In this document: positions 1-35,178 of the stretch, in pieces | Layout: each line of letters starts with the position of its first letter | Numbering within the stretch: the stretch's first letter is position 1 | Origin: Candidatus Woesearchaeota archaeon | GTDB taxonomy: Archaea > Nanobdellota > Nanobdellia > Woesearchaeales > B72-G16 | Assembly (NCBI GenBank): GCA_003650545.1 | Contig: QMQO01000007.1 | Coordinates: 1-41,573, forward strand | Length of the DNA stretch: 41,573 nt | Direction: 5' to 3' | Translations under genes and position numbers: made by a program | The notes under the pieces: generated by a model | Seen by the model: only the letters and a program-made list of their open reading frames with translations | Databases searched by the model: none | What the model was told of the DNA's origin: nothing

Positions 1-108
1 GAGTGCGCCCATTCCGCTGCGCACTCATTCATCAACCAAAAATGCTAGAAAAAACTAACGGAGGACCTCAATTCCTCCCAAACGTAAACGTTTGGGTATC
101 CTTGAGGT
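1..108. mobile_element. Probable IS200/IS605-type end or palindromic element remnant (two hairpins)
   Basis: GAGTGCGC...GCGCACTC hairpin at 1-26. CCCAAACGT-AA-ACGTTTGGG hairpin within CAATTCCTCCC...GGGTATCCTTG, which resembles IS200/IS605 subterminal hairpins. No transposase nearby in the window. Confidence 0.5.
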
Positions 109-33636: not shown

Positions 33637-34051
33637 AAAAAGATAAGGTCACTGATTTCGTACATATACTATATAACGACTCTCTATCTTTACTACAACA
33701 ATTAGTTTAGATATCCAGAAGGATTTTTTTGGTGAAAAGTCTCATATTGAAATCAAATGTGCATCTCGTGTCTCGTGTGTCTAAGATAAATCAAATTATG
33801 TATTAAAAGAAAGATTCTTCTGATCGAAACTGAAAAGTCTCAGAGTACTTACTTCAAACATATAATATAACTTTGTTGTTTTAGTGATCAATCATTTTTT
33901 AGGGTTAAGTCGTGTTTGATAGTTAAACTGCCATGACTTTCATCAGCCACTCAATCACCAAAAGTAACTGGAGCGGGATATTAGCACACTTAAGTCAACA
34001 GTACACTTTTTTAGTTAAATTTTTAAATTGGGATTAATCTTTTCTAATCAT

Positions 34052-34208
34052 GGGCCCGTAGCCTAGCCTGGATAGATAAGGTAAATAGGGCGACAGGACT
34101 TAGTCCCGCTAAAGCCTCCTACTCTAGGTGAAAGCTGTAGATCGAGGGTTCGAATAGAAGAAACTAAAAAATATCTTGTTTCTTTCAACGAAAATCCCTC
34201 CGGGCCCG
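34052..34208 (+). tRNA. tRNA-Arg(CCU) with four introns (34072-34084, 34095-34112, 34122-34132, 34155-34194)
   Basis: Removing the four inserts gives 75 nt GGGCCCG TA GCCT AGCCTGGATA GGGC G ACAGC CT-CCT-AA GCTGT AGATC GAGGG TTCGAAT CCCTC CGGGCCC G, a full cloverleaf with no encoded CCA. TATA-like TTTTTAAA about 25 nt upstream. Confidence 0.92.
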
Positions 34209-34218
34209 TTTAATTAAA

Positions 34219-35178
34219 ATGTACAAAATCAAACAACTTCCTGAAGATTTCATTGTAAAAGAGATAAACAACATAACAGTAAAAGATAAAGGCAGATATT
34301 CCTACTGGTTATTAAAGAAAAAGAATCACAACACAATAAGTGCTATACATATTATAGCGAATGCTATAGGAAAACCGCTAAATACTATAGGATATGCAGG
34401 CAATAAAGACAAAAACGCGGTGACAGAACAGATCATTTCTATTAAGAATGTTAACAAGAAGAGAGTTGAGTCTACTCAGTTAAGAAATATTAGTCTTAAA
34501 TTTTTAGGAGTTGGTGATGAACCAGTTGTGATTGGTATGCTTGAAGGTAATTACTTTGAGATTGTTGTTAGAAATATTGAATCAAAACCTTTTATAAAAA
34601 AAGAGTTTATCAACCTTTTTGGTGAACAACGTTTTAGTAAGAAGAACGTTGATATAGGTAAAGCTATAGTGCATGGTTGTTTTGACAAAGCAGCTAAGTT
34701 AATTGCTGAAACAGATAGAGAGTATGGTGCAAAAAAGTTTTATAATGCTAATAAGAATAATCCTATTGCAATGATACGTTTGTTACCTAAAAGCCTAATA
34801 AAGCTTTATGTGCATGCTTATCAATCAAAAATGTGGAATGATATTGCAATAGAGTATATTAAAAATAAAAAAAGAAAAAATTGTAAAATTCCAATTATTG
34901 GTTTTGGAACTAACATCAATAATTATAATAAAGATATTCGAAATATTGTTTTAAAAATAATTAAAAAAGAAAACATAAGTAAAGAAAATTTTATAATAAG
35001 GCAGCTCCCAGAAATTAGTTCTGAAGGTGGAGAGCGTGACCTTTTTGTAAAAGTAAATATAGAAGCAAGCAGACTTGAACATGACGAGATAAATAAAGGA
35101 AAGAAAAAGATTTTTCTTAAGTTTTCATTGCCAAAAGGTAGTTATGCAACTGAGATTATTAGACAGATATTTATTTGA
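34219..35178 (+). CDS. truD: tRNA pseudouridine(13) synthase TruD
   Basis: PEDFIVKE, YAGNKDKNAVTEQ, GNYF, FGEQRF and FSLPKGSYAT motifs. Confidence 0.95.
   Translation: MYKIKQLPEDFIVKEINNITVKDKGRYSYWLLKKKNHNTISAIHIIANAIGKPLNTIGYAGNKDKNAVTEQIISIKNVNKKRVESTQLRNISLKFLGVGDEPVVIGMLEGNYFEIVVRNIESKPFIKKEFINLFGEQRFSKKNVDIGKAIVHGCFDKAAKLIAETDREYGAKKFYNANKNNPIAMIRLLPKSLIKLYVHAYQSKMWNDIAIEYIKNKKRKNCKIPIIGFGTNINNYNKDIRNIVLKIIKKENISKENFIIRQLPEISSEGGERDLFVKVNIEASRLEHDEINKGKKKIFLKFSLPKGSYATEIIRQIFI

Follow-up and report, generated by a model that had tools for sequence, protein, structure and literature searches.

The 157-nt segment at positions 34052-34208 on the + strand of the window (the whole stretch of 41,573 nucleotides that was analysed) consists of five exons and four inserts. 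We consider it, with a probability of about 0.86, to be the only detectable tRNA-Arg(CCU) gene of this genome, interrupted by four BHB introns which would be excised by the splicing endonuclease EndA before the exons are joined by the ligase RtcB. In a first-pass annotation of the stretch, four BHB-type introns had been proposed to split a tRNA-Arg(CCU) gene in the D loop, the anticodon stem, the anticodon loop and the T loop. This proposal is now backed by structure, by statistics and by comparison with relatives.

Organization of the locus

A 7-bp GC-rich acceptor stem encloses the locus, in which exons of 20, 10, 9, 22 and 14 nt (75 nt together) are separated by introns of 13, 18, 11 and 40 nt (82 nt together); all the sizes given in the first-pass annotation were reproduced. 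The features are listed in Table 1. Exons 1 and 2 are contiguous in intronless relatives, and CCA is not encoded in exon 5. The 75-nt spliced product was identified by ARAGORN as tRNA-Arg(cct) and folded into a cloverleaf at -34.6 kcal/mol. It has the features of this isoacceptor: the anticodon CCU sits in a loop of 7 nt, U33 is present and the body resembles that of other tRNA-Arg. Position 20 of the spliced product is A, a putative identity element for ArgRS.

Table 1. Features of the tRNA-Arg(CCT) locus, with two further intron-bearing tRNA genes of the same genome. The slash within a bulge marks the cut.
Feature	Position	Strand	Content or site	BHB motif	Basis
TATA-like A/T-rich box TTTTTAAA, putative promoter	34020..34027	+	25-32 nt upstream of the tRNA 5′ end		read from sequence
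Exon 1, 20 nt	34052..34071	+	acceptor 5′ strand, positions 8-9, D-stem 5′ strand, D loop to G19		solver traceback
Intron 1, 13 nt	34072..34084	+	19/20	H helix GCCT/AGGT, 4/4 pairs; bulges GG/A, AA/A; outer helix 4 bp, inner 1 bp; hBH-loop type	solver, motif, intron-letter shuffles
Exon 2, 10 nt	34085..34094	+	A20-C28: D-loop remainder, D-stem 3′ strand, position 26, anticodon-stem bases 1-2		solver
Intron 2, 18 nt	34095..34112	+	28/29, anticodon-stem 5′ strand	H helix GGCG/CGCT, 4/4 pairs; bulges AC/A, AA/A; outer helix 0 bp, inner 4-bp hairpin GGAC-TTA-GTCC; HBh′ type	solver, motif, shuffles
Exon 3, 9-nt micro-exon	34113..34121	+	A29-A37, including anticodon CCT		solver
Intron 3, 11 nt	34122..34132	+	37/38, canonical site	H helix CTCC/GGTG, 3/4 pairs (U-U mismatch); bulges TA/C, AA/A; 4-nt loop in place of inner helix; hBH-loop type	solver, motif, shuffles, folding
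Exon 4, 22 nt	34133..34154	+	A38-A59: anticodon-stem 3′ strand, variable region, T-stem 5′ strand, T loop to A59		solver
Intron 4, 40 nt	34155..34194	+	59/60, T loop	H helix TTCG/CGAA, 4/4 pairs; bulges AA/T, AA/T; outer helix T stem, 5 bp; inner 8-bp helix offset by internal loop	solver, motif, folding
Exon 5, 14 nt	34195..34208	+	T60, T-stem 3′ strand, acceptor 3′ strand, discriminator G		solver
truD (tRNA pseudouridine synthase TruD)	34219..35178	+	starts 11 nt after the tRNA		Pfam PF01142, E 4.9e-59
tRNA-Arg(TCT), paralog	G000:C4:39237-39358		introns of 14, 20 and 14 nt at 19/20, 37/38 and 59/60
tRNA-Asn(GTT), apparently five introns	G000:C1:87609-87424	-	introns 15/16, 30/31, 37/38, 43/44, 59/60	H helices 4, 4, 4, 3 and 3 of 4

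All four pairs of exon-intron boundaries have the same layout: a 4-bp helix is flanked by two 3-nt bulges, each cut after its second base. The helices and bulges drawn in the first-pass annotation were recovered at all four junctions in exact register. By a simple measure, which asks for an outer and an inner helix, each of 2 bp or more, right next to the bulges, 0 of 4 motifs have the strict hBHBh′ form. Because none possesses both adjoining helices, all four are classed as relaxed (hBH-loop or HBh′). The outer helix of intron 3 is the anticodon stem itself, which has 3 bp with intron 2 present and 5 bp once it is removed. According to the literature consulted, relaxed BHB forms are known substrates of broad-specificity enzymes only. 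That the host would need an endonuclease of broad specificity, as the first-pass annotation held, stays an inference; only one EndA gene, alpha4-like and devoid of the crenarchaeal loop, was found.

The A/T-rich box upstream of the gene is a putative promoter. A TTTA(A/T)AAA-type word is present between positions -45 and -16 in 16 of 29 tRNA genes of the genome, as against 2.2% of 2000 random positions. Downstream, the tRNA-Arg(CCT) gene is adjoined by truD, and in 5 of 22 related loci a tRNA-Arg(CCT) gene neighbours truD as well. From MAGs entitled Woesearchaeota or Nanoarchaeota, no protein was more than 48% identical to this TruD.

The unspliced locus escaped both tRNA gene finders applied to it. 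ARAGORN with intron options returned nothing from it, and no match to the Rfam tRNA model was obtained there either, whether at the gathering score, in a search of the whole genome at E<=10 or in a permissive scan of 33950-34300. The expectation that scanners miss this gene therefore holds for ARAGORN and for Infernal/Rfam. Across the whole assembly ARAGORN called 7 tRNAs, two of them wrongly, and 7 matches to the Rfam model were above cut-off.

Recovery of the four introns and tests against chance

The intron positions were determined with our own minimum-cost dynamic-programming solver, which fits a canonical cloverleaf and allows jumps only at BHB-like sites; a jump demands at least 3 of 4 pairs between the 4-base blocks ending two bases before the 5′ and 3′ cuts. 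When the solver was run on 197 nt around the locus, with the introns not supplied, it returned the identical four introns at a cost of 14.41, in which imperfections of the cloverleaf and of the motifs account for 2.41. The four-intron solution remained optimal as the penalty per intron was raised from 3 to 5.

Two sets of controls were scored in the same way. The lowest cost among 110 random 197-nt genomic windows was 21.15 (median 29.9) and among 110 shuffles of the locus it was 22.4 (median 30.9), so that the observed cost was reached by 0 of 220 controls. The helices were also evaluated separately by shuffling the letters of each intron 5000 times with the junctions fixed. A helix as good as the observed one arose in 1.5%, 4.3%, 14.2% and 3.7% of shuffles for introns 1 to 4, respectively, and the product of these frequencies is 3.5e-6.

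Comparison with tRNA-Arg genes of relatives

The spliced product was aligned with the uninterrupted tRNA-Arg(TCT) genes of four relatives, G036, G031, G051 and G032 (loci L004, L008, L010 and L011, respectively). The alignments were gapless, with 70, 71, 71 and 70 identities out of 75. All four junctions therefore rebuild sequence that is found contiguous elsewhere. This comparison with relatives is the strongest evidence for the structure of the tRNA-Arg(CCT) gene. The match to the spliced tRNA-Arg(TCT) paralog of the same genome was 71/75, and that to the intronless tRNA-Arg(CCT) of locus L048 and of genome G025 was 57/75 in each case.

The paralog is itself interrupted (Table 1), by introns whose sequences and lengths are unlike those of the tRNA-Arg(CCT) gene, and it is contiguous at 28/29. 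The number of introns in tRNA-Arg(CCT) genes of relatives varies: none was found in L048, one each in L053 (at 19/20) and L059 (at 38/39), two each in L006 and L049, and three in L005; L012 and L047 were read, by eye only, as having three each. Introns at 59/60 are also present in tRNA-Arg genes of relatives. Position 19/20 had been called a rare site in the first-pass annotation. This did not stand for this lineage: introns at 19/20 recur in the paralog, in relatives L003, L005 and L053 and in several genes of the same genome.

The order's tRNA-Arg(CCT) and tRNA-Arg(TCT) genes (L002-L012, L047-L059), together with the paralog, thus resemble the gene described here in having a nearly identical mature sequence and in using the same three sites. 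They follow the same helix logic too; for example, the 3′ end of the 59/60 intron pairs with the T-loop TTCR. They differ in having 0-3 introns of other sequences and lengths (14-116 nt) and in lacking the 18-nt intron at 28/29. This intron is absent from the paralog and from 13 tRNA-Arg loci of relatives, all of which are contiguous at that point. Judging from this distribution, the 28/29 intron is likely to be a lineage-specific gain on top of three sites, 19/20, 37/38 and 59/60, shared across the order.

When the mature sequence was used to scan the assembly by spliced alignment, only this locus and the tRNA-Arg(TCT) paralog were detected; no second tRNA-Arg(CCT)-like locus was found. The assembly (1.64 Mb, 36% GC) has an estimated completeness of 85%, and a second copy could lie in the missing 15%, as could a second endonuclease subunit. 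A pattern search for contiguous CCT anticodon arms yielded 42 AT-rich hairpins. An uninterrupted tRNA-Arg(TCT)-like gene was also noticed on a 175-nt contig of another organism.

Introns in other tRNA genes of the genome

The first-pass annotation had also called for a survey of the other tRNA genes for multiple introns. We scanned both strands of the assembly by spliced alignment with 69 reference tRNAs from two relatives. On the reversed genome, scanned as a control with 12 of the 69 queries, the highest score was 41.9. In the assembly itself 33 loci scored 46 or more, 29 of which were resolved by the solver together with ARAGORN. The remaining four candidates were dropped from the census: C3:77733 (cost 32.1), C6:28258 (27.0), C43:7947 (24.2) and one at a contig end, C88 (39.0). 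Scans of the flanks of resolved tRNA loci added at least three further genes.

For three of the 29 loci (one Ile and two Thr) the unconstrained solver gave anticodons inconsistent with the isotype, which ARAGORN accepted; these loci were solved again with the anticodon constrained. Because of these wrong-anticodon solutions the exact junctions in the census, unlike those of the tRNA-Arg(CCT) gene, are provisional. The census stands at a minimum of 32 tRNA genes, and the 32 resolved genes contain 72 BHB-type introns, or about 2.25 per gene; some circularity enters this count, since the helix is required by the solver. Introns are present in 29 of the 32 genes. Three genes have none, five have one, eight have two, 14 have three, one has four (the tRNA-Arg(CCT) gene) and one apparently has five. 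The three-intron genes include tRNA-Phe and tRNA-Leu. The 59/60 site is occupied in 21 of 32 genes and the 37/38 site in 17, with three more introns at 38/39.

The gene assigned five introns is tRNA-Asn(GTT). Its spliced-alignment score is 66.6, and its spliced form matches the intronless tRNA-Asn of a relative in 64 of 72 positions; the cost of 20.6 assigned by the solver lies near the noise floor. On sequence grounds it appears to be a five-intron gene, and four introns would then not be the maximum in this genome.

With the Rfam tRNA model the 61 genomes of the order gave between 0 and 43 matches per genome, and 18 of them gave 12 or fewer; a relative assembled in one contig has 12-14 such matches. 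The tRNAs 'missing' from those 18 genomes are therefore probably hidden genes, and such genes seem to be common in this order. No other genome in the comparison belongs to the same family as the present one.

Splicing enzymes

EndA is encoded by one ORF of 176 aa on the minus strand (G000:C6, L013:1474-2004), with matches to PF01974 (E 3.7e-32) and PF02778 (E 6.4e-17). It aligns with solved EndAs over the catalytic Tyr/His/Lys motifs, and residues 5-176 align with residues 1-171 of the M. jannaschii enzyme (1a79) with a single 1-aa indel. Among PDB entries, M. kandleri EndA and the N. equitans catalytic subunit match it best. The Crenarchaea-specific loop (CSL) is absent, as seen from gaps of 10-11 aa relative to S. 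tokodaii 2cv8 and A. pernix 3p1z_B. The NEQ205-type insert in the Tyr-His interval is absent as well, with gaps of 2 and 4 aa relative to NEQ205 (3iey_A).

No credible second EndA subunit or paralog was found in the 85%-complete assembly by tblastn at E<=50, and PF01974 and PF02778 gave a single match each. Weak tblastn matches on contigs C31 and C91 turned out to be unrelated ORFs, one of them ligase-like. Exactly one PF01974 match is present in 57 of 61 genomes of the order, complete genomes included. The enzyme, a single gene of the ~170-180 aa class with an N-terminal and a catalytic domain and no beta gene found, appears alpha4-like and would by its type be a homotetramer. The first-pass annotation had asked for the EndA of the genome to be typed, and the outcome is one alpha4-like gene that lacks the loop of the crenarchaeal enzymes. 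An RNase Z-like gene adjoins the EndA gene. The genome also encodes RtcB ligase (PF01139, E 1.7e-137).

As far as PMC5829648 (Kaneta et al. 2018) could be consulted, alpha4 EndAs are described there as restricted to strict motifs, and DPANN alpha4 EndAs with an 'L3' loop as associated with more tRNA disruption. The same source notes incomplete tRNA sets in DPANN genomes and calls for manual searches. Its DPANN systems, as presented in the available text, are like the present one in combining a single alpha-type EndA with many disrupted tRNA genes, but no intron counts above three are given in that text, unlike the four and apparently five found here.

Folding of the precursor and proposed order of splicing

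In the minimum free energy (MFE) structure of the precursor, at -57.5 kcal/mol, the BHBs of introns 2 and 4 are already formed. Those of introns 1 and 3 are missing from it, and forming them costs 6.5 and 6.9 kcal/mol, respectively. Once intron 2 is removed these costs drop to 1.6 and 1.1 kcal/mol. One nested structure, at -49.0 kcal/mol, accommodates all four motifs.

Based on these data the following path could be proposed. A precursor of ~157 nt would be transcribed from the A/T-rich box ~28 nt upstream. The 3′ end of each insert would pair with the exon bases that immediately precede the insert's own 5′ splice site to give a relaxed BHB, EndA would cut each bulge after the second base, and RtcB would join the five exons into the 75-nt cloverleaf tRNA. 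Introns 2 and 4 would leave first and introns 1 and 3 afterwards, an order suggested by the folding costs of the motifs alone.

Alternative interpretations

The same observations could come from a decaying or silent gene, in which the inserts are real while the locus is unexpressed or incompletely spliced and AGG is read by tRNA-Arg(UCU). This tRNA could in principle read AGG by wobble, and a tRNA-Arg(CCU) gene therefore need not be essential. The absence of the first and third BHB from the precursor MFE would fit such a locus, as would the combination of four relaxed motifs with an EndA that looks alpha4-like. However, the exons are intact and retain their 70-71/75 identity to intronless genes of relatives, every stem is paired (structural cost 2.41), all four H helices have been kept, the TATA-like box stands at the usual distance and no other CCT-anticodon tRNA-like locus was found. 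Moreover, 29 of the 32 resolved tRNA genes have introns of the same kind, which means that the cell must splice them. We consider a silent gene improbable.

Two further readings, each very improbable, concern the inserts themselves. The GGAC-TTA-GTCC hairpin could instead be taken as part of a different anticodon arm, with anticodon UUA, so that a single 29-nt insert would replace introns 2 and 3 and the gene would have only three introns. The solver does prefer this arrangement when the charge per intron is 7 or more, but its structural cost is 7.91 vs 2.41 and it places C at position 33, where U is near-universal in tRNAs. It also breaks the gapless match to the relatives and to the paralog, and the anticodon arm of the paralog has the stem of the four-intron solution. 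One or more of the inserts might, on the other hand, be assembly artefacts or chimeric joins, which could be suspected because the genome was assembled from a metagenome, is in 133 contigs and has 3.9% contamination. Yet every insert contains a stretch that pairs, in exact BHB register, with the exon before it, and at three of the four sites the paralog and independently assembled relatives have introns too, of different sequence. Judged from the sequences, such complementarity and sharing of sites would not be produced by an artefact.

Discussion

Archaeal tRNA genes have been described as having up to three introns (PMC8450103), or 'a maximum of three introns' (PMC4033280), as far as the accessible text of these papers goes, and the three-intron maximum given in the first-pass annotation agrees with both. 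A full-text literature search found no report of an archaeal tRNA gene with four or more introns. Features of this kind are known already; what is new here is the intron number, along with the lineage and the enzyme context.

Multi-intron tRNA genes of Thermoproteales, as presented in the available text of PMC8450103 and PMC4033280, are the closest in character: several introns can occur in one gene, the genes are hidden from standard finders and, as here, a stepwise order of intron removal has been suggested. The maximum stated there is three, compared with four in the gene described here and apparently five in a gene on another contig. The richest genome named in the available text of PMC8450103 is that of Pyrobaculum calidifontis, with 71 introns in 46 tRNA genes or 1.54 per gene, against ~2.25 per resolved gene here. 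The enzymes differ as well, since Thermoproteales have an (alpha-beta)2 EndA, whereas the present host is of the DPANN Woesearchaeota type with one alpha4-like EndA that lacks the Crenarchaea-specific loop. The eukaryotic three-intron tRNA system likewise has introns in the same three arms and BHB motifs. Its order of removal was established experimentally, with the outer introns leaving before that at 37/38, and its splicing was verified by RT-PCR, whereas the introns described here are known from the gene sequence.

The four-intron gene, and the apparent five-intron gene with it, would raise the limit of three introns stated for archaeal tRNA genes and would make DPANN archaea, in place of Thermoproteales, the group with the most strongly fragmented tRNA genes. 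Hidden tRNA genes of this kind affect estimates of genome completeness and annotation. Because many relaxed-motif introns are found alongside one alpha4-like EndA, what determines the substrate range of EndA could be tested directly with one small enzyme and one 157-nt substrate that contains four different motifs.

More tentatively, and rather less likely than not, this lineage may have the most fragmented tRNA gene set described, all of it processed by one plain alpha4-type EndA devoid of the loops thought to be needed for relaxed motifs. If true, this would point to an unrecognised route to broad specificity for an alpha4 enzyme, or to an unknown helper. It would also imply that splicing is obligatorily ordered, the removal of one intron creating the motif of the next.

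Introns in tRNA genes of the host genome

The whole-genome census of the host assembly (G000), based on a spliced-alignment scan and a cloverleaf and bulge-helix-bulge (BHB) solver, revealed 72 BHB-type introns in 32 resolved tRNA genes, or about 2.25 per gene. A T-loop intron at 59/60 was found in 21 of the 32, the 3′ end of such introns pairing with the T-loop TTCR, and only three genes were intronless.

One gene of this census, tRNA-Asn(GTT), appears to be interrupted five times, by introns of 20 nt at 15/16, 20 nt at 30/31, 15 nt at 37/38, 28 nt at 43/44 and 31 nt at 59/60. The spliced product was called as Asn by ARAGORN and is identical at 64 of 72 positions to the Asn tRNA of a relative, which has no introns. 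A three-intron tRNA-Ile(GAT) gene is located 24 nt downstream. The 30/31 introns of these two genes resemble each other: both start with AGTCTC, and a hairpin follows.

It is known that some archaeal tRNA introns encode C/D box guide RNAs. Words similar to C and D boxes (TGATGA ... CTGA) were observed inside several long 37/38 introns, both in the host and in relatives. The presence of these words suggests that C/D box guide RNAs may be encoded within the introns concerned.

Features associated with tRNA genes and their processing (C, contigs of G000; L005 and L006, related-genome loci; L013, EndA locus)
Feature	Location	Strand	Remark
truD, pseudouridine synthase	window 34219-35178	+	starts 11 nt past end of tRNA-Arg(CCT)
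tRNA-Asn(GTT)	C1:87609-87424	-	outside window
Leu(CAA), C/D-box-like 37/38 intron	C14:12579-12371
Met, C/D-box-like 37/38 intron	C36:8729-8563
Tyr and Phe, C/D-box-like 37/38 introns	G000
tRNA-Arg(CCT) of relatives, C/D-box-like 37/38 introns	L005, L006
RtcB ligase	C10:11502-14324	-	single 1008-aa open frame; Pfam match
EndA	C6, L013:1474-2004	-	176 aa; single gene
RNase Z-like metallo-beta-lactamase	C6, L013:2078-3022	+

Processing enzymes and surroundings of tRNA-Arg(CCT)

The genes for EndA and the RNase Z-like protein, two tRNA-processing enzymes, adjoin back to back. The Pfam match of RtcB is divided into two pieces (positions 1-50 and 45-426) with approximately 1.5 kb between them, a gap that looks like an intein-sized insert.

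The truD gene also adjoins tRNA-Arg(CCT) in five of 22 related loci (L047, L048, L049, L053 and L059). A CRISPR direct-repeat model weakly matched window positions 34005-34040 (-), overlying the AT-rich putative promoter region of tRNA-Arg(CCT); at 18.6 bits (E 4.6), far under the gathering score of 41, this match is most likely due to chance.

tRNA detection across the order

With the Rfam tRNA model, 18 of 61 same-order genomes yielded 0-12 tRNAs each. One of these 18 is complete, in one contig, with 12 Rfam tRNA matches in this survey and 14 in a separate Rfam search. Overall, heavy disruption of tRNA genes seems to be widespread across this order.
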